This document shows positions 44,783-64,000 of a stretch of 64,000 bases of DNA, piece by piece (position 1 is the stretch's first letter; each line of letters opens with the position of its first letter). Location: positions 4,512,001 to 4,576,000 of the forward strand of contig OZ243938.1 of assembly GCA_965214095.1 (NCBI GenBank), written 5' to 3'. The position numbers and the translations under genes are program-made. Source of the stretch: Candidatus Poribacteria bacterium (GTDB lineage Bacteria; Poribacteria; WGA-4E; WGA-3G). A model generated the notes under the pieces. That model saw only the letters and a program-made list of their open reading frames with translations, was not told the DNA's origin and did not search any database.

Positions 44783-45367
44783 ATGAATCCAGACGAATTG
44801 AAAGATGCTGAGGATGCGGAACTCATCGTGGCGGTATTGGCTGGTAATCACAAAGCGTTTGATGAATTAGTGTACCGGTATCAACGCGGTATGCTTTCCG
44901 TAGCACAACAGGTTGTCCGAAACCCAATTGAAGCGGAAGACATTGTCCAAGATGCATTCTTACTTGCATTTGAGGCATTACCGCAACTTGATAATCTAAA
45001 TAGATTTGGTTCTTGGCTCTATTCAATTACACGTAATCGCGCACTACGTTTCATGAAACGATCAAGTAGAATACAATTGCATGACGATGTAGATACAGAA
45101 TTGCAAATAGAGGCAGATCCTGCTTCAACAGATCCTGCACAAATAGTGGAACAGGAATCTACCCATGAAGATGTCAGGGAAGCGATTGATTCACTACCTT
45201 CAGATTTTAAGGAGGTAATCACGCTCTATTATTGGGCAGATATGCCGCAGAAACGGATTGCCGAAACACTTTCGCTCCCCTTAACAACGGTAAAATGGAG
45301 ACTTCATAAAGGGAAAGACTTACTAAAAACCGTATTAGAAAAACGTGGATATGGAGATATTTTGTAG
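44783..45367 (+). CDS. ECF (sigma-70 group 4) RNA polymerase sigma factor
   Basis: AFDELVYRY, EAEDIVQDAF, FGSWLYSITRN, IAETLSLPLTTVKWRL. Confidence 0.95.
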   Translation: MNPDELKDAEDAELIVAVLAGNHKAFDELVYRYQRGMLSVAQQVVRNPIEAEDIVQDAFLLAFEALPQLDNLNRFGSWLYSITRNRALRFMKRSSRIQLHDDVDTELQIEADPASTDPAQIVEQESTHEDVREAIDSLPSDFKEVITLYYWADMPQKRIAETLSLPLTTVKWRLHKGKDLLKTVLEKRGYGDIL

Positions 45368-46766
45368 CATGGAACAGGAACGACAACAAGAAATACGTGG
45401 ACTTTTTCAAATTCTTGAGCAGACAGCAGAGATCGCAGAAAATTCAGCATTGACAGAGAACTATAAGGATGGAGAAAGGCGATGCGTCTCTCAATTCAAT
45501 AAGGTCTTGAAACGACTGAGTGCGTTAGATGCTGTCCCAGATGCGCTCTTTGAACCATTACATGAAGATGCTAATTATAGTGAAATTAGTATTGCTTGTA
45601 ATCATCTTGCAGCGTATCTAAGCGAGGGATTAGGATCATTTCCCGATCTAAAAGGCATGGTGACCAACATTCTTGGGAAAAGATTCATTGAGAACATTGA
45701 GGAAGAGTTGAAAGAAGGTAAAATTGGTGATTTGATACGGAACGCGATTCCTGAATTTATGACTGAGACTACTCTGGATGACATCAATGAATCGTTCAAT
45801 GTGAGTCCGGATGGTAGGTTGATACTTGATGTAGACATTGGAACGATTGACATTCGGACAGCAGAAAGCGAGGCAGTTAATGTTGTCGTGCACCGGGCAG
45901 CAAAGTTCAAGACAGATAGGCATGCAACGGATTTACTTAAGGATTTCCAAGTCAACATTAATCCAAAAGAAGGTGAACTTCAAATTGATGCGAAATTTAA
46001 AGATGGTAAACGGTATTGGAAAAAAAACACAGAACGACTGAATATCCATTTTGATATTACAGTTCCCAAAACTTTCCACGGTGTATATTTAAAAACAGCG
46101 GCGGGTGATATTACTGTTCATGATTTTAGTGGTGCAGTCCAATCGCAAACAAACAGTGGGGAACTGAAGTTTGAGAATATCACAGGTCCAATTTTTGGCA
46201 ATACGGTCAATGGTGATGTCAGGTTGGCTCAATGTGAAAGTGATGTTAGGATTGAAGCATTACGAGGAGACATTGAGATAAATAACAACATCGGAAGTGT
46301 TGACGCGACTACATCTGGTGGAAGTATACGTTGTGTAGATGTTGATGGTGAAATCATCGGAGAAACATCTGGTGGTAGTATCAAGTTGGTCCGATGTAAG
46401 GGGGAGGCAAAGGTTCAGACTTCAGGCGGAAGTATCGACCTGGACAATGATGGTTCGATCACTGCCAAAACCTTTGGTGGTTCTATTAACGCAGGTATAT
46501 CGGGACAACTCAAAGGCGATTCAACTATAGAAGTCTCAGGTGGAGACATCACAGTTTCATTGCCTTCTGATATTGCATTAAAGGTTGATGCAAAATGTAG
46601 TGGTGGAGCGGTAGTATCTGAACTGCCGGATGTTATCGTCGCTGATGATGAACATATATCTGGACAACTGTATGGGGTTGTTAATGGTGATGGTCCTTTA
46701 CTGAAACTCCGTTGCATTGGTGGAGATATAAATTTGAAAAGTAAGCATGTTGATAGTGAAACATAA
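45345..46766 (+). CDS. DUF4097/putative-adhesin beta-repeat protein with N-terminal helical domain; likely start ATG 45369
   Basis: Repeated TSGGSI/TAAGDI/VSGGDI units; ending VNGDGPLLKLRCIGGDINL; no signal peptide or TM segment. Confidence 0.82.
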   Translation: MDMEIFCSMEQERQQEIRGLFQILEQTAEIAENSALTENYKDGERRCVSQFNKVLKRLSALDAVPDALFEPLHEDANYSEISIACNHLAAYLSEGLGSFPDLKGMVTNILGKRFIENIEEELKEGKIGDLIRNAIPEFMTETTLDDINESFNVSPDGRLILDVDIGTIDIRTAESEAVNVVVHRAAKFKTDRHATDLLKDFQVNINPKEGELQIDAKFKDGKRYWKKNTERLNIHFDITVPKTFHGVYLKTAAGDITVHDFSGAVQSQTNSGELKFENITGPIFGNTVNGDVRLAQCESDVRIEALRGDIEINNNIGSVDATTSGGSIRCVDVDGEIIGETSGGSIKLVRCKGEAKVQTSGGSIDLDNDGSITAKTFGGSINAGISGQLKGDSTIEVSGGDITVSLPSDIALKVDAKCSGGAVVSELPDVIVADDEHISGQLYGVVNGDGPLLKLRCIGGDINLKSKHVDSET

Positions 46767-54358: not shown

Positions 54359-55402
54359 TTACTTCTTTTCTCTATATTCACTTAGCAATTTGTTAATCTT
54401 ATCAAGAAACTCTTGAGAGTATATTTCCCCGACAAGAGCTTGATGCGTTTCTGTAGCGAGGGTATCCCAAGCCTCTAATGAATCCTCTTCAAACTTGACA
54501 ACTTCAATCCCGACTTTCTGCACAAGTGCGTCAAGTGAATTCTTATTGTCCTGTCGAACATTCTTCATCAATTCAGTCTGATATTTATCTCCGGCATCAA
54601 GGATAACTTTCTGATGCGCGGGTGTAAGTTTATCAAACTTCTCTTTTGTAATAATTGTCGCACCGACACCGACATTAACAGGTAGATCAGTCATGTATTT
54701 AAATTTGGATGCCCATTGTAGTGCAACTGTAACATAAGGAGAGACCGTTACTGCATTTATCCTTCCAGCGTATAAACCCGGCAAGACTTGTGTAACTTCT
54801 CCTGGTACTGTTGCGATATCGGCTTTTTTGTAGAACATCTGTGCGATCTTGTCATTTGTTCGCATCCACATTTTGACATTTGGTGATTTAAGATCATCAA
54901 TATTCCTAATGGGATGATTACTGAAAATGTGGTAGAACCCTATGTCACCCATTCCAATTAGGACATATCCTTTATCCAAGAATACATTGTATAGATCTTC
55001 ACGGAGATGTTGTCGGACATAGTCAAGTTCTTCGTAGCTTCGGAACATGCGCGGGAGTTGGAAGATCAGTACTTCTTCATTAATTTCGCCAAGTCCTGTT
55101 GCAGTCATAGCACCAGCATGGATTAATCCATTTCGCATTTTACTGATCACATCAAGTTCGTCACCTTGGATACCGTTTGCGTAGAAACGGAATTTTATCT
55201 GTCCATCCGTATTAGCCTGAATTTCTTTCGCCATTGCATTGAAATTGTTCATCCACGTAGAACCTTTCGGTGCAAGTGTGGCGAACTTTATAGACTCAAC
55301 AGCAAGCAGTGTTGCTGGCAAACATAGTAATCCAATTAATAGTATAATCACACATACAATACTTGAAACATTTCTCTTGTACATTGTTTTGAAATTCCTC
55401 AT
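54359..55402 (-). CDS. TRAP transporter substrate-binding protein (DctP/TatP-type)
   Basis: IKFATLAPKGSTW, TDGQIKFRFY..G.QGDE, PIRNIDDLK, ALQW. Confidence 0.9.
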   Translation of the reverse strand: MRNFKTMYKRNVSSIVCVIILLIGLLCLPATLLAVESIKFATLAPKGSTWMNNFNAMAKEIQANTDGQIKFRFYANGIQGDELDVISKMRNGLIHAGAMTATGLGEINEEVLIFQLPRMFRSYEELDYVRQHLREDLYNVFLDKGYVLIGMGDIGFYHIFSNHPIRNIDDLKSPNVKMWMRTNDKIAQMFYKKADIATVPGEVTQVLPGLYAGRINAVTVSPYVTVALQWASKFKYMTDLPVNVGVGATIITKEKFDKLTPAHQKVILDAGDKYQTELMKNVRQDNKNSLDALVQKVGIEVVKFEEDSLEAWDTLATETHQALVGEIYSQEFLDKINKLLSEYREKK

Positions 55403-56304
55403 TATTCTATTTCCTCTTCTTCTAAATCAAAAAGTGTATCAATTTGTGAAAGTAATCGTTCAGATCGTGCTTTTGCAAGAGAAGTTGCTGCATTTTCTCC
55501 AGGAAAAATGTCTGGTGGCGCGTCAATAACTTCTTGCAAAGCCTTCTTGAATAGTGGTGCGTCCTGTATGGGATAGGCATAGTATTTTGCCAAATAGAAT
55601 TTGCTCATCAGGAACTTTCCATCATTAATTTCATCTACGCGTTCGATGTGTTCCTTTGCCTTTTCTGGATTCCCACCAATTGCTGGCGATCGGTCACCGT
55701 AAAAGACAGCATAGAATAGGTGTGCACTCCCGAAATAGAAGGTTTCATCTAATTCCAATACGCGCTTCATCATCAGTTCAACCCGCTCAAGGTCAACCAC
55801 CTGCATTGGGTCGTCTTTCTGTAGACTAATACCGCGTCCGACCGAATAAGCTGCCCAGAACAACGGCTCAACATCCTTCTTTTTGATTTTCTGAACTGCT
55901 TTTGCGAATGTATCTGGATTCACTGTACGCGCCTCTTTAAAGGTCTTATTGGATTTTGCCAATGCTTTGAATGCATACATTTCAGAACGGACGTAATGTT
56001 CAATAGCCTTGCTACGCATTTCATCTGCAGTTTCAAAATCACCTGCAATCTCTGCCTCCTCCATCTTATCTTCGAGAAATCCGGCGTAAGAAGAAAAAGC
56101 GCGTGAAGTCTTAACAATTAAGGACTTGTTTCCTAACTTCGTTAATCGTTCAAGCGTTTTTAGGTTTTTCTCAAGTGTGGTTTCAACCACCTGCAAGTCG
56201 CCTTCCTTTTGAATACTGGATAACTTGCTTAGACCACACCCGCCAAGTAATAGAGTTAGTAGAAGTATATACACTATACGCGTGTAATAATTGTTGAATA
56301 TCAT
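55402..56304 (-). CDS. TRAP transporter T-component (TatT, cryptic-TPR lipoprotein)
   Basis: Lipobox LGGC; PLFWAA..MMKRVLELDETFYFGSAH..P.IGGNPEKAKEH; 1-bp overlap with the dctP-like gene. Confidence 0.85.
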   Translation of the reverse strand: MIFNNYYTRIVYILLLTLLLGGCGLSKLSSIQKEGDLQVVETTLEKNLKTLERLTKLGNKSLIVKTSRAFSSYAGFLEDKMEEAEIAGDFETADEMRSKAIEHYVRSEMYAFKALAKSNKTFKEARTVNPDTFAKAVQKIKKKDVEPLFWAAYSVGRGISLQKDDPMQVVDLERVELMMKRVLELDETFYFGSAHLFYAVFYGDRSPAIGGNPEKAKEHIERVDEINDGKFLMSKFYLAKYYAYPIQDAPLFKKALQEVIDAPPDIFPGENAATSLAKARSERLLSQIDTLFDLEEEEIE

Positions 56305-57691: not shown

Positions 57692-60600
57692 TTAGAACAT
57701 CTGTTCCAAACGCCAAAGAATTAATAGTTTCCGTGCCGAAGATTCTACATTGAGTGGCAGCGCGAATTCAAACACAGAGTTTAAAGGCAAATCAACACCT
57801 GGTGGACGGACAAAGATTGATATTCCAATACCAGCAGAAAATTTGAAATCATTCAATGAAAAATTGGTAAGCGGGTTTTCATCATACCACCAAACTTGTC
57901 CTGCATCCAAAAAAGTGCTGAGTGCCCATCCGATTGAAACATCTGAAAAGCCTTCAATATAGGTTATATCCACATATCGGTGTTCAAGATTCAGCACAAA
58001 TCGTCTATCCCCTACAAATGAGTTGTGTCTAAAACCGCGAAGATTTGGTAATCCACCAAGGTAAAATAGATGTTGTGTTGGTAGTCGTCCATCAGAGAAA
58101 TCGGTAAGCATACGGACATTTAGATTATGTTTACCAATCAATGGCGTGTATCGTATTAATTCCAATTGATAAGCATTATATGTCCAATCTCCACCGAGGC
58201 TGCCGCCAACTATTTCTATACCAATATTTCCTCGCCAACCTCGTCGTGTTTGTGGATTGGGTCTCAGAATCATCTGGCTCGCGAGATTGTCAGCACCATC
58301 CAGAGTTGATTTATGATCTCGTGTGTCAAAAGTGTATCTTAATGAAACGATGTTTTGTGTGCCAGTGTCTATCCGTTGATTTCCGAGTTTGACTTTGCTT
58401 CTATTGTAGTAACTCCAATCCGTTGATTTGAATAGATTATCATGATCCTCATAAGTCAATTCAAGTCTTAATTGAGATGATTGCCCAAATTTCTTTGCAA
58501 TCCAGACATGTTCTCCCTGACTTTGAAAAAAATGGTCAACAGAAGTCCCGTAGAACGAATCGCTTAGATTAAATTCAGCAGGTAATAAACGGAAGTCATT
58601 TATACTCTTATTCGTTAATTTGTATGAACCCACCCCTATAGTCAATGGGAAACGTGTGAAAAATGTATTTTCCACACCGACTTGATAGTTCAAAATACGA
58701 CTTGATACTCCGAGACTGAATGAACCGAAGAGATGTTCTTCATCCAAGAGATGGGTTGATAAGTTTCCACCCGCACCTAATACTAACCCGTGCACACGAT
58801 TGAATCCGAGTATTGGAAACCAACCGGATTTTACTAACGGATGTTCAATTATATCTACAATTAGAACATTTTTGCCACCTTCTTTTTGTGCTTGCCAATC
58901 GCCAACCGACTTGAAGGCATCATTGTTCTTTTTGAGTTCTTTCTGTAGGTTATTGATCTTGTTTTGACCTAAAGAGTGAAAATATACACCTTCGCTATCC
59001 AAATCCAATGCAGTAGTTAGTACCGACTCTGGAATACGACGATTGCCAGTAAACCGAATTTCATCAATACTGCCCTCGCTAATGTTATACTGTAATTGGT
59101 CGTTGGTATATTCATGTGTGACATTTGCAAATGAGAAGCCGCGGTTTAAATAGAAATCTTGAATGATTTGTTGCTTCAAGTGTATATTTATTTTAGCATA
59201 ATAACCTGGAAACAGATCAACCCAACGTTTGATGAAAAGTGCGGGAAAACTCCTATTCCCACGGATGTTTATTTTCTCTGCAAACTGCACATTTGCTTCG
59301 GTCACACTGATTTTCACATTGACTTTCAACAGTCCTTCCTTCGGTAGACCATCATTCTTGACAGTGTCGGTATCATCCGTTGTAGAAGTGCTTGGTGGAT
59401 TTGTTGGTGCGGATTTAGTTTCTTCTTGTTCCACAATAGTAGTAGTCAATTCCACCTTTTCAAACCAATCCAAATTCTCTAAATGCAAAATTAGGTAAGA
59501 CAATTGTTCGTTTGTAATTGTAGCACCAATTGTAATCGGAATTCCTCCTAATAGGACATCAGAAGGAATTGTCCTGTTTCCCTCAATTTCAATAGTATTC
59601 ACTATAAAATAATCTGATATATCAAACGTGTCTGGGAATAGTGGGTGTTTCGCAACTAACTTTAATTTTCCCATTCCCTCTTTCCAATGGGGCCACCACG
59701 GATATTCTTCATCATACATAGGCAACCAGTAACTATACTCACGATGAACAACCGGATTTATATCGTTGCCTACATCCTTTTTCAATTGTGAATTGCGAAA
59801 AACGTTGAGGAGCCAAGTTTCACTTCCGTCTGTTTTCTTCGTTTTTCGTGGAATAGCTGCTTCTAAACTCCAATAATTAGCATTGATTTTAGTTGCAACT
59901 TTTGCATTTGAATTCCATGAACTATCAGCCTTGAACTGGACGACTGAACTATCACTCTTTTCTCTTTTTACGCCACTGGGTGCGAATCGGAAATTTGGGA
60001 AACCAACTTTTGTGACCATTTGATCGAACACACCTCCAATCGGATTGATGATAAGATGTGAATACACTTCAGTTTTTGGATCCATATCAAGCAGGATTTC
60101 AATAGATTCATCTTCCCAGATAGGTGAATCAAGTTGTGTTTGTGACACGCGCGGAACTTGTGATTCCTGTATGAACGCTCTTGCTCCAATATAAAAGTTG
60201 TCTGTGTCATACATCATATACACATCTGTCTGATTTTCAGCGGTTTCTGTCCCCGCGGGATTCTGAAATGCTGAGAGTGTATTTGAATATAGCCAGGTTC
60301 TTTCGGATAAATCTCCATCAATCGTTGGTGGTTCTGTGGCTAATGGGATAGGTAACTCGCTATTAGATGCTGGTAATTCTTGATCACTTCCCTGATTGGC
60401 ATCATTGGATTTACTACGTAATCTTGGATTCGTTAGTATTGAGATTGCATCGGTGGCATTTAAACGGAGCAGTGGACCTCCCTCGTTGATGATACCGATA
60501 TTATTTTCAATGTCGGATGGTAGATTTATAAGATACTGTTGTTTTTCACTATTGAGTTCAACATCAGCAGAATAATTGATCGGAAGGAGTAGCTTGATAT

Positions 60601-61387
60601 TACCACCCGATGCAGTTATATCGAGTGGGGCAGGAAGGTCGTCAAGTACGGATAGATCAATCGAACCTTTTTGCGTTTTTATTTCGCTCTGTCCAGGTGT
60701 CAATAGTATTTGTCCATGAATGCGTCCACTATATGTTTCCACTTGATAGATTCCCGTGGTCTCATCCAAATGGACGTTTCCCAACTCATTGGTTATTTTT
60801 ATTTTTCCGCGTAAGTGATGAATGTAGACATCTCCAACTCTAATCCTGAGATCTACAGCAATATCTGGCGGTGTTTTAATTTCATAGTTTAGTTGCAAGT
60901 CTTTTTTTAAGTCGGATGTGCTTTTTTTATTGTTTGTCTGATCGGGGATGTCTTCTGGTAACTGCGAATTCAACTGAAGCACTCCATCTTTTTGAGTGTT
61001 TGTTAATCTGATTTTTTCCAAATATTCCTTTGTAAAGAGTGGATTTTCCACGAGTACGTGTTTTTCCAGTTTAACACTAATGGTATCTTTGACTTCTACA
61101 TTACTGTCAATCGCCAATATTTTTATATTACCGGGTATGTCTAAATGGAGTTCTATTTTGAAGGTGTCGGCATACCTAAAGGTATTTTCTATGGTTGGTG
61201 GGGAAGAAGTATTGGAAGGTGTTTGTGTCAGGTCTTTTTCCGATTGATCACTAAGGGTTGTAGAACGTTCAGTGCCAGTCTGCACAACGTTGAGTGCGTC
61301 TATTGACTGGACTGATGTACAAATTCCTAATAGGACAAGACAAATTATGCTTTGCCAATAACCTGACGTAATCATAAATCTCAACAT
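57692..61387 (-). CDS. Omp85/BamA-TamA-family protein with N-terminal DUF4097-like and CBM9-like domains and about 3 POTRA repeats
   Basis: Signal peptide; beta-repeat region ending INEGGPLLRL; PPTIDGDLSE..YDTDNFYIG..WEDESIEILLD..WSLEAAIP; IEIEGNRTIP/INIRGNRSFP/IRFTGNRRIP; LGGLPNLRGF, FLDAGQVW, SAGIGI; terminal Phe. Confidence 0.82.
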   Translation of the reverse strand: MLRFMITSGYWQSIICLVLLGICTSVQSIDALNVVQTGTERSTTLSDQSEKDLTQTPSNTSSPPTIENTFRYADTFKIELHLDIPGNIKILAIDSNVEVKDTISVKLEKHVLVENPLFTKEYLEKIRLTNTQKDGVLQLNSQLPEDIPDQTNNKKSTSDLKKDLQLNYEIKTPPDIAVDLRIRVGDVYIHHLRGKIKITNELGNVHLDETTGIYQVETYSGRIHGQILLTPGQSEIKTQKGSIDLSVLDDLPAPLDITASGGNIKLLLPINYSADVELNSEKQQYLINLPSDIENNIGIINEGGPLLRLNATDAISILTNPRLRSKSNDANQGSDQELPASNSELPIPLATEPPTIDGDLSERTWLYSNTLSAFQNPAGTETAENQTDVYMMYDTDNFYIGARAFIQESQVPRVSQTQLDSPIWEDESIEILLDMDPKTEVYSHLIINPIGGVFDQMVTKVGFPNFRFAPSGVKREKSDSSVVQFKADSSWNSNAKVATKINANYWSLEAAIPRKTKKTDGSETWLLNVFRNSQLKKDVGNDINPVVHREYSYWLPMYDEEYPWWPHWKEGMGKLKLVAKHPLFPDTFDISDYFIVNTIEIEGNRTIPSDVLLGGIPITIGATITNEQLSYLILHLENLDWFEKVELTTTIVEQEETKSAPTNPPSTSTTDDTDTVKNDGLPKEGLLKVNVKISVTEANVQFAEKINIRGNRSFPALFIKRWVDLFPGYYAKINIHLKQQIIQDFYLNRGFSFANVTHEYTNDQLQYNISEGSIDEIRFTGNRRIPESVLTTALDLDSEGVYFHSLGQNKINNLQKELKKNNDAFKSVGDWQAQKEGGKNVLIVDIIEHPLVKSGWFPILGFNRVHGLVLGAGGNLSTHLLDEEHLFGSFSLGVSSRILNYQVGVENTFFTRFPLTIGVGSYKLTNKSINDFRLLPAEFNLSDSFYGTSVDHFFQSQGEHVWIAKKFGQSSQLRLELTYEDHDNLFKSTDWSYYNRSKVKLGNQRIDTGTQNIVSLRYTFDTRDHKSTLDGADNLASQMILRPNPQTRRGWRGNIGIEIVGGSLGGDWTYNAYQLELIRYTPLIGKHNLNVRMLTDFSDGRLPTQHLFYLGGLPNLRGFRHNSFVGDRRFVLNLEHRYVDITYIEGFSDVSIGWALSTFLDAGQVWWYDENPLTNFSLNDFKFSAGIGISIFVRPPGVDLPLNSVFEFALPLNVESSARKLLILWRLEQMF

Positions 61388-61509: not shown

Positions 61510-61553
61510 TTGACACGTATTATATAATACTTTATACTTATTATTAAAGTCAA
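61510..61553. promoter_or_regulatory. Overlapping divergent sigma70 promoters
   Basis: Plus strand TTGACA(61510)-17-TATACT(61533); minus strand TTGACT(61553-48)-18-TATTAT. Confidence 0.6.
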
Positions 61554-61676: not shown

Positions 61677-62720
61677 ATGTCCAATTCGCTTACAGAATAT
61701 CGTTTTTCATTCGGTCCTTGGAATATACACGAGGGTGCTGACCCATTTGGACCACCTGTTCGGGACTCCTATAGTTTTGATGAAAAGGTAAGTTTTTACC
61801 GGGATCTCGGTTTTGTCGGTATTCAATTTCATGATGATGATGTCGTTCCTGACATTGATGGCAAAACGCATTCAGAATTAATCTCACGTACACGAAGCGT
61901 TAAAGCACAACTTGATGACCAAGGTTTGACAACAGAGGTAATAGCACCACGCCTATGGGAATCACCACAGACGATTGATGGAGCTTTCACTTCAAACTCA
62001 GCAGAAGAGAGACATTATGCGATTGAACGATCGAAACGTTGTATAGACATTGCCAACGTCCTTGAGTGCAAGAACTTTGTGTTGTGGCTTGCCCGGGAAG
62101 GCACTTATATCCGTGAAACAAAGCACTCTGCAAACGCGGTCGGACATATATTAGATGCCATTAATGTGCTACTTGACTATGACCCGGAGATACGTATTCT
62201 AATTGAACCAAAGCCGAATGAACCGATGGATATTGCTTATATTCCAACAATAGGACACGCTATCGGTTTATCATACTCAAGCACAGATCCTGAACGTGTT
62301 GGTGGATTAATAGAGAGCGCGCATGCTATACTTGCAGGGTTGGAACCATCAGATGAGATGGGGTATGCCCTTTTCCATAAGAAACTGTGGAGTGTGCATC
62401 TGAATGACCAGAACGGACTGAAGTTTGATCAGGATAAGGCGTTCGGTTCTGCCAATTTAAGACGTGCTTTTAATCAAGTGCGCGTCCTTGAAGAGAACGG
62501 ATACGGAAGAAATGGAGAATTTGTCGGCTTAGATGTTAAAGTGATGCGGACCCAACCGCGCGATATTTCAACGAAACATCTACTGAGTAGTCGGAGGACG
62601 TTTCTTAATTTGCTCGAAAAAGTGAGAACATTTGACAGAAAAGTAGAACAGGAGTTTATTGCAGCACGAGATTATGAAGGATTAGATTTTTATATTCTTG
62701 AGCATCTACTTGGAAAATAA
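61677..62720 (+). CDS. xylA: Xylose isomerase family protein
   Basis: FSFGPWN..GADPFG, FHDDD, WLAREG, IEPKPNEP, ESAH, HLNDQ, FDQD. Confidence 0.85.
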   Translation: MSNSLTEYRFSFGPWNIHEGADPFGPPVRDSYSFDEKVSFYRDLGFVGIQFHDDDVVPDIDGKTHSELISRTRSVKAQLDDQGLTTEVIAPRLWESPQTIDGAFTSNSAEERHYAIERSKRCIDIANVLECKNFVLWLAREGTYIRETKHSANAVGHILDAINVLLDYDPEIRILIEPKPNEPMDIAYIPTIGHAIGLSYSSTDPERVGGLIESAHAILAGLEPSDEMGYALFHKKLWSVHLNDQNGLKFDQDKAFGSANLRRAFNQVRVLEENGYGRNGEFVGLDVKVMRTQPRDISTKHLLSSRRTFLNLLEKVRTFDRKVEQEFIAARDYEGLDFYILEHLLGK

Positions 62721-63526: not shown

Positions 63527-64000
63527 CTATTTAACCTGACGATATATTCGTATCTCAGGATGTATCAGTGCACGCATGGGAAATGGTGTGTCATTATCAG
63601 ATATTGTTATACCTAAGAACTGTGGCACTCGTTGGAAGGTCTTCTGTAATTCATAACGGCTACTCTCCCCTAAAATCTTATCATAATATTGTAGAGTCTC
63701 TTCAATACCTACCCCTTTTAGTGGATACCAGTCTATTTCTTCATACGCTATTGGCTTCTGTTCATATTTTTGGAATACTTCCATGTTTGGATAAATAACT
63801 AAAGCCCATTCAGCATCTTCGTCTGTTAGTTCTATATCAAATTCAGGTACGAGCCAATCAAATAGTATCTCTGGTGCATGTGAAACTGAACTTTCGTGTG
63901 AGATGTTTTCGGATGCCCACGCTGATGCTTCTTGTCCTGTAGGTTGCGACATCATTACTGAAGCAAAAGCAACAGTATAGACGAATGAATATAACCATAT
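63527..64000 (-). CDS. C-terminal part of a membrane protein that starts beyond the window (possibly GT-C/ArnT-like)
   Basis: Frame is open from 64000 (IWLYSFVYTVAFASVMMSQ...) through HPEIRIYR: last TM segment followed by a soluble tail. The family call is tentative. Confidence 0.55.
   Translation of the reverse strand: MWLYSFVYTVAFASVMMSQPTGQEASAWASENISHESSVSHAPEILFDWLVPEFDIELTDEDAEWALVIYPNMEVFQKYEQKPIAYEEIDWYPLKGVGIEETLQYYDKILGESSRYELQKTFQRVPQFLGITISDNDTPFPMRALIHPEIRIYRQVK

Follow-up and report, generated by a model that had tools for sequence, protein, structure and literature searches.

The gene at 57692..61387 raises the question of what an Omp85-type outer-membrane protein might do with two further domains in front of its POTRA repeats, and whether it belongs to a subfamily yet to be described. 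Outer-membrane biogenesis centres on Omp85 proteins, and to our knowledge few of their subfamilies have known functions. The gene lies in a 64,000-nt window (the whole stretch of DNA analysed; assembly GCA_965214095.1, contig OZ243938.1, 4,512,001 to 4,576,000) from Candidatus Poribacteria bacterium; Poribacteria are known largely from sponge symbionts. The ORF is open throughout on the minus strand (1231 aa), and the doubt that it might be a chimeric assembly is dispelled because the full-length gene recurs in 66/66 independent public loci.

Domains were assigned using Pfam HMMs, two AF2 models (aa 32–590, mean pLDDT 74.9; aa 576–1231, pLDDT 69.7), Foldseek and further structure comparison (Z scores). 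Every domain claimed by the first-pass annotation was recovered, and their positions are given in Table 1.

Table 1. Features of the Omp85-type gene and its upstream region, in window coordinates
Feature	Residues	Position	Strand	Basis or remark
Whole gene		57692..61387	-	1231 codons plus stop (stop codon 57692-57694); full-length orthologues found
Signal peptide (predicted)	1-31	61295..61387	-	Hydrophobic core, SIDA before likely cleavage site; sequence reading
Ser/Thr/Pro-rich disordered linker	32-64	61196..61294	-	pLDDT 24-29 in AF2 model
Toastrack / DUF4097 beta-helix domain	~65-320	60428..61195	-	Structure matches, BLASTP
CBM9-like (DOMON-clan) beta-sandwich	~343-579	59651..60361	-	1i82_A, 4jpq_B both Z 19.5
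Codon of W424		60116..60118	-	HMMER alignment to clamp Trp71; invariant 30/30 and 42/42
Codon of W565, WWPHW loop		59693..59695	-	Candidate Trp175 equivalent by position only; invariant 30/30
POTRA 1	~593-697	59297..59611	-	Model secondary structure; Z 13.8 to 2x8x POTRA1-3
POTRA 2	~700-770	59078..59290	-	Pfam, AF2 model, structure comparison
POTRA 3	~776-848	58844..59062	-	Pfam, AF2 model, structure comparison
16-strand Omp85 barrel, ends at F1231	~857-1231	57695..58819	-	AF2 model, structure, Pfam
Loop-6 motif LRGF	1116-1119	58031..58042	-	Sequence; R1117, G1118 invariant
Overlapping divergent promoter-like hexamer pairs		61510..61553	.	289-bp intergenic region; consensus matches only

The predicted signal peptide agrees with the earlier reading, and its last residue, A31, is at least 90% conserved among aligned orthologues; residues 1–64 as a whole show 25% pairwise identity. 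Pfam matches to the two domains that follow are weak in this protein, DUF4097 scoring 17.0 bits (aa 195–268; cut-off 22.9) and CBM9_1 22.1 bits (aa 356–440), just under its cut-off of 23.4. Orthologues exceed both thresholds (34.4, 32.9 and 31.8 bits for DUF4097; 40.9, 44.0 and 39.9 bits for CBM9_1), and the weak matches were confirmed by structure comparison of the AF2 model.

Model residues 30–288 (aa ~61–319 of the protein) match DUF4097-type 'putative adhesin' structures, the highest being 3pet_B (Z 13.5, 184 aligned), followed by 3lyc, 4qrk, 3ljy and 4ygu (Z 12.4–13.2; 4qrk_A Z 13.0, 159 aligned). Foldseek agrees (4qrk, E 5.2e-8; 4opw_B, 3.9e-3). The matches to 4qrk_A and 3pet_B place the modelled domain in the toastrack fold (DUF4097/DUF2154/DUF2807) as defined in PMC11237479. 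This region had been described as ending like the protein encoded at 45345, the DUF4097 protein of the window (50.6 bits), and the two indeed align by BLASTP (2e-10) and have a C-terminal GGPLL(R/K)L motif in common. Toastrack domains have been proposed to act as membrane-proximal surfaces for protein docking and argued to be usually intracellular (PMC11237479); here, in contrast, the domain comes after a predicted signal peptide.

For the middle domain, previously delimited at ~345-580, model residues 312–548 superimpose on Thermotoga maritima CBM9-2 (1i82_A) with Z 19.5 and rmsd 2.7 (180/189 aligned), indicating a predicted CBM9 beta-sandwich. Foldseek gives E 9.7e-8 against 1i82, and the family profile (A4) matches 1i82 at E 2.4e-8; a genome-wide PF06452 search did not recover the domain. 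The sugar clamp of TmCBM9-2 consists of Trp71 and Trp175 (PMC8280721). By HMMER, the Trp of TmCBM9-2 'NPWEQDSVEIF' (Trp71) falls on W424 of 'DSPIWEDESIEIL'. The candidate for the second position, W565, sits in the topologically equivalent loop (aa 554–568) between the last long strand and a short helix, and W554, W565 and H567 of this loop are among the 26 residues of the domain that are invariant in 30 sequences. The glycan binding proposed earlier thereby gains partial support, from the predicted fold and one clamp residue, the other being assigned by position only.

A DOMON-type haem or cofactor binder with a periplasmic redox or small-molecule role, in place of a lectin, would fit the invariance of H444 and H567 and the presence among structural neighbours of the haem-b subunits EbdC (2ivf_C, Z 13.5) and NxrC (7b04_C, Z 11.9), with cellobiose-dehydrogenase cytochrome domains at Z 7.5–7.7. 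We consider this very unlikely, as CBM9 proper scores far higher and is the sole family found by sequence, and Phe takes the place of M572, a putative haem-ligand position, in distant lineages.

The C-terminal half conforms to the first reading of three POTRA-like repeats and a barrel. The AF2 model of aa 576–1231 contains three beta-alpha-alpha-beta-beta units, the first with a disordered insert (aa ~652–686), followed by 16 barrel strands. The POTRA region is detected by Pfam (61.3 bits, 1.5e-16) and resembles known POTRA1-3 structures (Z 13.8 to 2x8x, 13.3 to 3mc8), while Omp85 is matched over aa 1048–1190 (48.1 bits against a cut-off of 24; 1.6e-12). The model matches the known barrels of BamA (8xnb_B, Z 18.9), Sam50 (7btw_A, 18.2) and TamA (8us1_A, 17.4), as well as 9ccg_D (also 17.4). 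Across 42/42 aligned orthologues R1117, G1118 and the C-terminal F1231 do not vary, and (V/I/L)RG(F/Y) is the Omp85 loop-6 signature. A modelled 16-strand barrel with at least one POTRA before it, the loop-6 motif and a C-terminal aromatic residue assign the protein to the Omp85 superfamily.

This genome carries ten Omp85-type genes, and names in public annotation such as 'BamA/TamA family outer membrane protein' and 'outer membrane protein assembly factor BamA' would suit a BamA or TamA with lineage-specific decoration. Such an identity is contradicted by several results and is extremely unlikely. The protein scores 69.6 bits on the BamA equivalog TIGR03303 (cut-off 297.15) and has three POTRAs against BamA's five; a separate canonical bamA, the presence of which was to be confirmed, lies at C1:1388321-1390570 (402.9 bits, 5 POTRA stretches). 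The sole TamB match (a 2125-aa frame ending at C1:1285492) is directly upstream of a different, 1022-aa Omp85 (L099, C1:1285714), ~3.3 Mb from the gene studied here, which has no tamB neighbour. A tree of the barrels groups BamA with the TamA-like protein and a 623-aa paralogue having three POTRAs (88/82), apart from this family; 11/26 inner branches of the tree are open, and this family is not one supported clade. Judged by sequence, the protein is an Omp85 paralogue distinct from both the cell's BamA and its TamB-associated Omp85. Other architectures in the genome are DUF4252+CBM9_1+Omp85 and Peptidase_MA_2+PD40+Omp85, and there are three CBM9_1+DUF5916 genes.

The search across phyla that had been suggested showed the architecture to be Poribacteria-wide. 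An N-arm query found a match in 175/176 Poribacteria genomes, including 133/133 of high quality, and frames of 1098–1144 aa with near-full-length arm matches were present in all five genomes checked (four other families, two in another class). It is not exclusive to the phylum, because a few Latescibacterota MAGs have the complete architecture too. Short forms of 643–695 aa, with toastrack and barrel, are found in both phyla, and in one Poribacteria family (2/2 genomes examined) the orthologues are without CBM9-like and POTRA modules, so that the core function cannot depend on glycan binding. The conserved core looks like the toastrack and barrel pair. In Latescibacterota, a toastrack gene directly follows a DUF4252+Omp85 gene in 2/9 loci examined, and lies within 1.7 kb of one in a third locus.

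The neighbourhood gives little indication of a pathway. The gene had been described as divergent from a xylose isomerase gene, hinting at a carbohydrate-related role. The neighbour scores 197.6 bits on the xylA equivalog, against a cut-off of 447, and is therefore only a xylose-isomerase-like TIM barrel; it adjoins the Omp85 gene in 61/66 closely related loci, whereas in distant Poribacteria lineages that have retained this Omp85 it does so in 0/7 loci. The hint is not supported. Synteny with gcvT, the xylose-isomerase-like gene and adk is clade-level only, and no pathway-indicating conserved neighbour was seen among the close or distant Poribacteria loci compared. DUF4390 lies downstream in only 2/7 distant loci and was not found when searched for in this genome. 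Promoter-like hexamers that overlap and diverge, as proposed for the promoters, lie at 61510-61538 (+) and 61553-61524 (-), as pattern matches only, in a region with 28 hexamer matches against 20.6 +/- 5.6 expected.

Elsewhere in the window, a gene for a DUF4097/LiaG-like protein comes after one for an ECF sigma factor, and PSP/Lia envelope-stress systems repeatedly have the toastrack as a partner (PMC11237479). Together with the exchange of N-terminal modules (DUF4252, CBM9_1, toastrack) among related barrels, this would be consistent with an anchor for envelope-stress signalling, in which the barrel, instead of inserting proteins, presents periplasmic sensor modules that feed a response of the ECF or PSP-like kind. 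Genes for sigma factors, anti-sigma factors or two-component systems are, however, absent from the conserved neighbours, and POTRAs and loop-6 motif are kept as in active Omp85s, making such a role unlikely.

On which side of the outer membrane the arm resides bears on a further possibility, that of an adhesin which exports itself to the surface (type Vd-like or two-partner-like) and there binds polysaccharide of the host (sponge) or the environment through its toastrack and CBM9-like domains. The ends of cellulose and xylan are bound by CBM9 modules (PMC8280721), the nearest CBM9-like sequences beyond the family belong to glycoside hydrolases (GH123, GH20, GH42), and the toastrack has, besides neighbours labelled 'putative adhesin', TPS secretion domains at Z ~8. 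The export precedent, by contrast, has been overturned: PlpD, cited in the first-pass annotation as type Vd, is reported to keep its patatin domain in the periplasm (PMC11116518), which favours a periplasmic arm here also. A periplasmic topology is further suggested by the gap of only ~13 residues between CBM9-like domain and POTRA 1, and Pfam found neither a TPS domain nor, among matches at E <= 0.01, a patatin family in this protein. Mean pairwise identity is similar in all four domains (toastrack 0.54, CBM9-like 0.57, POTRA 0.53, barrel 0.58; linkers 0.21–0.25), which argues against a fast-evolving surface adhesin, and the gene is spread through nearly the whole phylum, not confined to a niche. 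A surface adhesin is thus distinctly unlikely.

The reading we tentatively prefer, at slightly less than even probability, is that of a specialised Omp85 facing the periplasm, with an arm that binds glycan and docks partners, a vertically inherited paralogue of housekeeping type. By analogy with solved Omp85 POTRA arms and PlpD, the barrel would sit in the outer membrane with the entire N-terminal arm hanging into the periplasm. The CBM9-like module may bind a glycan-bearing ligand through the candidate aromatic clamp (W424 and the WWPHW loop), possible ligands being peptidoglycan, a glycolipid, or a periplasmic or lipid-linked polysaccharide. The flat beta-sheet faces of the toastrack could serve as a docking surface for partner proteins, while the POTRA-barrel unit might insert or translocate a substrate of its own, with beta-augmentation, or might anchor the arm to the outer membrane.

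A bolder possibility, which we regard as unlikely, is a separate functional branch of Omp85 in Poribacteria and Latescibacterota that handles glycan-bearing cargo rather than ordinary beta-barrel insertion. In such a branch a divergent barrel would be combined with periplasmic modules that can be exchanged for one another (toastrack, CBM9-like, DUF4252, POTRA), fused or gene-adjacent. If true, this would make it a sugar-reading Omp85 machine, in export or anchoring of polysaccharide, glycolipid or glycoprotein, or in tethering the outer membrane to the cell wall. A near-universal Poribacteria Omp85 paralogue with a predicted lectin-type module and a beta-helix on its POTRA arm is a further sign that evolution has put the Omp85 scaffold to new uses, a case also made for PlpD, and provides a testable candidate for how glycans might be connected with the assembly or tethering of the outer membrane in an uncultured lineage. 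The domain boundaries and the candidate binding residues W424 and W565 suffice for the design of expression constructs.

Ten Omp85 subfamilies were distinguished by Heinz & Lithgow 2014 (PMC4104836). The combination of toastrack, CBM9-like domain, three POTRAs and barrel is absent from these ten as set out in section 10 of that paper, the supplementary domain tables of which could list rarer profiles, and literature searches on the architecture found no describing paper; to this extent the proposal of an undescribed subfamily stands. Close in outline is the 'BamA-like' subfamily (1-3 POTRA, always additional to BamA; PMC4104836), which is alike in three POTRAs, loop-6 barrel and co-resident BamA, but the present protein adds ~560 N-terminal residues (toastrack and CBM9-like) that section 10 of the same source does not describe for this subfamily. 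TamA of the TAM complex has three POTRAs too, and the P. aeruginosa protein (8us1_A) aligns with the barrel model over 459 residues, whereas this gene is away from tamB and its product has extra arm domains. PlpD similarly places a non-POTRA globular domain N-terminal to POTRA and barrel; the present protein is without patatin, has three POTRAs and carries other extra domains. WD40-Omp85 and metallophosphatase-Omp85 proteins likewise join an Omp85 barrel to a non-POTRA periplasmic module, but here three POTRAs are kept and the added domains differ. Outer-membrane beta-barrels preceded by a CBM9-like module are also seen in the CBM9_1+DUF5916 proteins, which have another barrel family, and in the DUF4252+CBM9_1+Omp85 paralogue, which has other partner domains and no POTRAs; the domain described here is far more divergent (19.6% identity over 112 aa to that paralogue). 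Compared with TmCBM9-2 (T. maritima Xyn10A, 1I82), it has the same predicted fold and keeps the Trp71 equivalent, but it has ~50 extra loop residues and is joined to a membrane barrel instead of a glycoside hydrolase.

Two Pfam domains lie above their cut-offs in toastrack-CBM9-Omp85, POTRA (1.5e-16, in two stretches) and the Omp85 domain (1.6e-12, aa 1048–1190), and two others fall just below, CBM9_1 (22.1 bits against a cut-off of 23.4, aa 356–440) and DUF4097 (17.0 bits against 22.9, aa 195–268). A putative signal peptide, read from the sequence, has a hydrophobic core followed by SIDA, and conservation at A31 is 90% or more; the mature protein (aa 32–1231) would then have exactly 1200 residues. 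The LRGF motif is at aa 1116–1119, and R1117, G1118 and F1231 are invariant in all 42 aligned orthologues. The toastrack region aligns (2e-10) with the DUF4097 protein starting at 45345, and a C-terminal GGPLL(R/K)L is common to both. Taken together, Pfam, the structure models, conservation and this alignment recover every element reported in the first-pass annotation: a signal peptide, a DUF4097-like repeat region ending like the 45345 protein, a CBM9-like domain, three POTRA units, and a barrel with LRGF and a terminal Phe.

The protein was folded as two parts (aa 32–590 and aa 576–1231) from the 42-sequence alignment, with moderate confidence in both (pTM 0.45–0.52). The N-terminal part (mean pLDDT 74.9) has a disordered linker ahead of two well-folded domains, and was compared with about 48,000 PDB representatives. 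Model residues 30–288 match DUF4097-type 'putative adhesin' structures (3pet_B, Z 13.5; 3lyc_A, 13.2; 4qrk_A, 13.0; 3ljy_A, 12.9; 4ygu_A, 12.4). Residues 312–548 match two structures at Z 19.5: Thermotoga maritima CBM9-2 (1i82_A, rmsd 2.7, 180 of 189 residues) and 4jpq_B, a 'putative carbohydrate-binding protein' from Bacteroides. Foldseek was concordant (4qrk, 5.2e-8; 1i82, 9.7e-8). The rival reading of the middle domain, as a haem-type DOMON, draws on haem-binding relatives found for the same domain (2ivf_C, Z 13.5; 7b04_C, Z 11.9), but these rank below CBM9. The C-terminal part (pLDDT 69.7) contains three POTRA units, the first with a disordered insert, followed by a 16-strand barrel. Its POTRA region resembles cyanobacterial Omp85 POTRA1–3 (Z 13.3–13.8), and the barrel resembles Deinococcus radiodurans BamA (Z 18.9), Sam50 (18.2–18.4), Fusobacterium nucleatum BamA (17.4, 469 residues aligned) and TamA (17.4).

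Mean pairwise identity among 42 orthologues is 0.54 for the toastrack, 0.57 for the CBM9-like domain, 0.53 for the POTRA units and 0.58 for the barrel, against 0.21–0.25 in the linkers. A profile of the CBM9-like domain, built from 30 sequences with distant lineages included, matched 1i82 on sequence (2.4e-8) and aligned the invariant W424 with the Trp in NPWEQDSVEIF (Trp71 when that entry is numbered from 0). In TmCBM9-2 the sugar is clamped by Trp71 and Trp175, as described in the excerpted text of PMC8280721. The HMMER alignment covered 1i82 residues 8–91 and 124–157 only, and Trp175 is outside these stretches; the loop at aa 554–568, which leads from the last long strand into a short helix, carries invariant W554, W565 and H567 and is a candidate for the Trp175 equivalent by position only. 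From the fold and the aligned tryptophan, we infer that the CBM9-like domain binds glycan.

One rival reading takes the protein as a plain BamA or TamA. The genome (5.25 Mb, four contigs, 94.5% complete) holds ten Omp85-type matches. Toastrack-CBM9-Omp85 fails the NCBIfam BamA equivalog (69.6 bits against a cut-off of 297), and the separate canonical bamA that the first-pass annotation had asked to be confirmed exists as an 819 aa gene, which passes the cut-off at 402.9 bits and has five POTRA stretches. The only TamB match of the genome is a 2125 aa frame directly upstream of a 1022 aa Omp85 in which Pfam marks three POTRA stretches, and the two are probably the organism's TAM pair. By BLAST, the barrels nearest to toastrack-CBM9-Omp85 are those of a 559 aa paralogue and the DUF4252 paralogues (1e-17 to 4e-13), with BamA far off (3e-5). 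A barrel tree (29 rows, the C-terminal 385 aa of each) is usable only for some small clades and for one separation, in which BamA, the TamA-like protein and a 623 aa three-POTRA paralogue form a group (88/82) apart from the toastrack-CBM9-Omp85 family; it gives no placement of the family, its backbone being open at 11 of 26 inner branches and the row own_L105 having a branch of 4.29. Toastrack-CBM9-Omp85 is a paralogue, and is neither BamA nor TamA.

Other proteins of this genome also carry unusual N-terminal modules. A 970 aa Omp85 paralogue (L101) has Peptidase_MA_2 and PD40/WD40-like beta-propeller repeats before its barrel; it is like the WD40-Omp85 class, but has an additional protease-like domain. 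Two further paralogues have DUF4252 (L103) or DUF4252 and CBM9_1 (L104) before the barrel, with no POTRA by Pfam. Three proteins of 677–743 aa have CBM9_1 at the N-terminus and DUF5916 behind it; a CBM9-like module ahead of a large C-terminal domain is thus a recurrent arrangement in the genome. A literature search on DUF5916 found no paper.

Features in the window, on contig C1 of this genome and at related loci
Feature	Location	Strand	Remarks
ECF-type sigma-70 gene (Sigma70_r2/r4) and DUF4097/LiaG-like toastrack protein	44783–46766	+	23 nt overlap; toastrack protein 473 aa, 45345–46766
TAtT (TRAP T-component) and DctP-family binding-protein genes	54359–56304	-	abutting; stop/start overlap at 55402
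gcvT			25 nt downstream of toastrack-CBM9-Omp85; TAtT and DctP TRAP-transporter genes next
toastrack-CBM9-Omp85 ORF	57692–61387	-	intact, 1231 aa
Promoter-like sites	61510–61553		overlapping, divergent; consensus matches only
XI-like TIM-barrel gene	61677–62720	+	divergent, upstream of toastrack-CBM9-Omp85; adk next
142 aa ORF	63527–64000	-	3' end of a gene crossing the window edge
L101	C1:466421–469333		Omp85 paralogue
TamB frame	ending C1:1285492		2125 aa
1022 aa Omp85	C1:1285714–1288782		
L129	C1:1874652–1876688		CBM9_1 + DUF5916
L104	C1:1887357–1889849		Omp85 paralogue
L103	C1:1967128–1969443		Omp85 paralogue
L127	C1:2357531–2359564		CBM9_1 + DUF5916
L128	C1:5040059–5042290		CBM9_1 + DUF5916
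DUF4390 genes	L130:11368–12117; L132:11811–12500		next gene downstream of the Omp85 orthologue; two distant Poribacteria lineages
TPR + Amidase_3 gene	L136:6635–8038		just upstream of the Omp85 orthologue in one genome of family f8

A word-based search returned 207 relatives. Among the 120 listed, 118 are 1123–1303 aa long and the other two 869 and 1023 aa, and those named are Candidatus Poribacteria. Taxon labels are as given by the depositors of the MAGs, and figures from the large searches rest on the best 150 matches listed. In the ESM Atlas a single cluster, that of the protein's own family, scored 0.99 (POTRA 100%, CBM9_1 93%, Omp85 86%), the remaining clusters being generic Omp85 at 0.80 or below. 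An N-arm query matched 175 of 176 Poribacteria genomes, including all 133 of high quality; the single exception is 73% complete. Since single-domain matches were accepted in this count, the distant lineages were checked directly. In families f6, f9, f10 and f11, toastrack and CBM9-like matches occur in frames of 1098–1144 aa (5/5 genomes), and f5 and f8 (three genomes) show weaker matches running from the toastrack into the CBM9-like region in frames of 1042–1112 aa. Family f4 matches in the toastrack part alone (2/2 genomes), in frames of 656–695 aa that Pfam reads as DUF4097 and Omp85 and nothing else; public clusters P0148–P0150 likewise carry these two Pfam domains without others.

Poribacteria are not alone in having the architecture. 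Cluster P0314 (1185 aa), labelled Candidatus Latescibacterota, is collinear, with the same domain order (BLASTP 2e-64 plus 6e-14). HMMER, run exhaustively against 1.84 billion representatives, gave 2347 matches, 18 of them at E ≤ 1e-30; among the matches listed, those beyond the 18 share the CBM9-like part alone, many in glycoside hydrolases. An Omnitrophota match (L138) was rejected as a relative, being a GH123-like protein with only the CBM9-like part in common. Among the matches listed from a sample of 151 Latescibacterota genomes (407 others lie beyond the listing), a full-length copy is complete in one genome (G184, 1206 aa), and partial or truncated copies occur in two genomes (G176, G177). 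Forms with toastrack and barrel only (670 and 767 aa) are found in G202, G198 and probably G181, and most other matches are toastrack or barrel as separate genes. The same listed matches include genes of about 560 aa with DUF4252 and Omp85, resembling L103 and L104; a toastrack gene follows directly in two of nine such loci examined, and lies within 1.7 kb in one more. Both the short forms and the loci with toastrack and barrel as neighbouring separate genes point to a core made of these two parts, to which the CBM9-like and POTRA modules would be accessory.

The first-pass annotation had called the divergent neighbour a xylose isomerase and seen in it a hint of a carbohydrate-related role. 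The XI-like protein lies well below all xylA equivalog cut-offs (197.6 bits against 447 for the closest), and its identity as a xylose isomerase is thus not established. Gene order is strongly maintained across 66 related loci (gcvT 64, XI-like 61, TAtT 61, adk 60, DctP 56), and the XI-like/gcvT order is absent from all seven loci of distant Poribacteria lineages; it is therefore read as clade-level gene order, functional coupling to either gene is rejected, and the hint is not supported. Of the overlapping divergent promoters also proposed, the sites are present, as matches to consensus only. The XI-like protein is itself unusually conserved, with 82–97% aa identity at 61 loci against 41–91% for the adjoining Omp85 N-arm.

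DUF4390 was rejected as a conserved partner, being downstream in only two of the seven distant loci, where no other neighbour recurs; a genome search for it returned none here and none in control genomes, and so was uninformative. The amidase gene at L136 (Amidase_3, N-acetylmuramoyl-L-alanine amidase) is a single case of a peptidoglycan-related neighbour. At the window edge, the visible 142 aa of the truncated ORF gave nothing in Pfam, and most of its homologues at related loci have about 460–680 aa. The sigma gene and the DUF4097/LiaG-like protein overlapping it likely form a sigma/anti-sigma-type pair, and this 473 aa protein was the sole match returned by a genome-wide DUF4097 family search.

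The N-terminal arm would hang in the periplasm, because POTRA arms are periplasmic in the matched solved Omp85s, only a short linker separates the CBM9-like domain from POTRA 1, conservation is even, and the PlpD domain offers a precedent, being reported as periplasmic (PMC11116518). Going by usual domain sizes, the arm would be about 15–20 nm long. The short linker, the even conservation and the PlpD precedent speak against a less likely rival reading, display of the arm at the surface. On the periplasmic reading, the CBM9-like domain would take a glycan ligand, the toastrack may serve as a docking surface, and the POTRA-barrel unit would keep its Omp85 activity. The excerpted text of PMC11237479 proposes docking as a role for toastracks; it takes the domain to be mostly intracellular. 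Envelope-stress sensing is another, less likely, rival reading.

The present analysis contributes the occurrence in Latescibacterota, the short forms and those split into two genes, the TamB neighbour of another Omp85 in the genome, and the alignment with Trp71. Literature searches found no paper on Omp85 with Poribacteria, CBM9 or toastrack; papers on Poribacteria and BamA were irrelevant, judged by title, and among the titles listed for Omp85 with carbohydrate-binding or DOMON modules nothing concerned this architecture. The proposal in the first-pass annotation of an undescribed Omp85 subfamily is, as to the domain combination, in keeping with these searches and with the classification of Heinz and Lithgow (PMC4104836), which recognises ten Omp85/TpsB subfamilies, including BamA-like, WD40, metallo, patatin, lipoprotein and noNterm. 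Toastrack-CBM9-Omp85 is unlike all ten, as these are given in the excerpted text, in carrying a toastrack and a CBM9-like domain ahead of its POTRA units and barrel.
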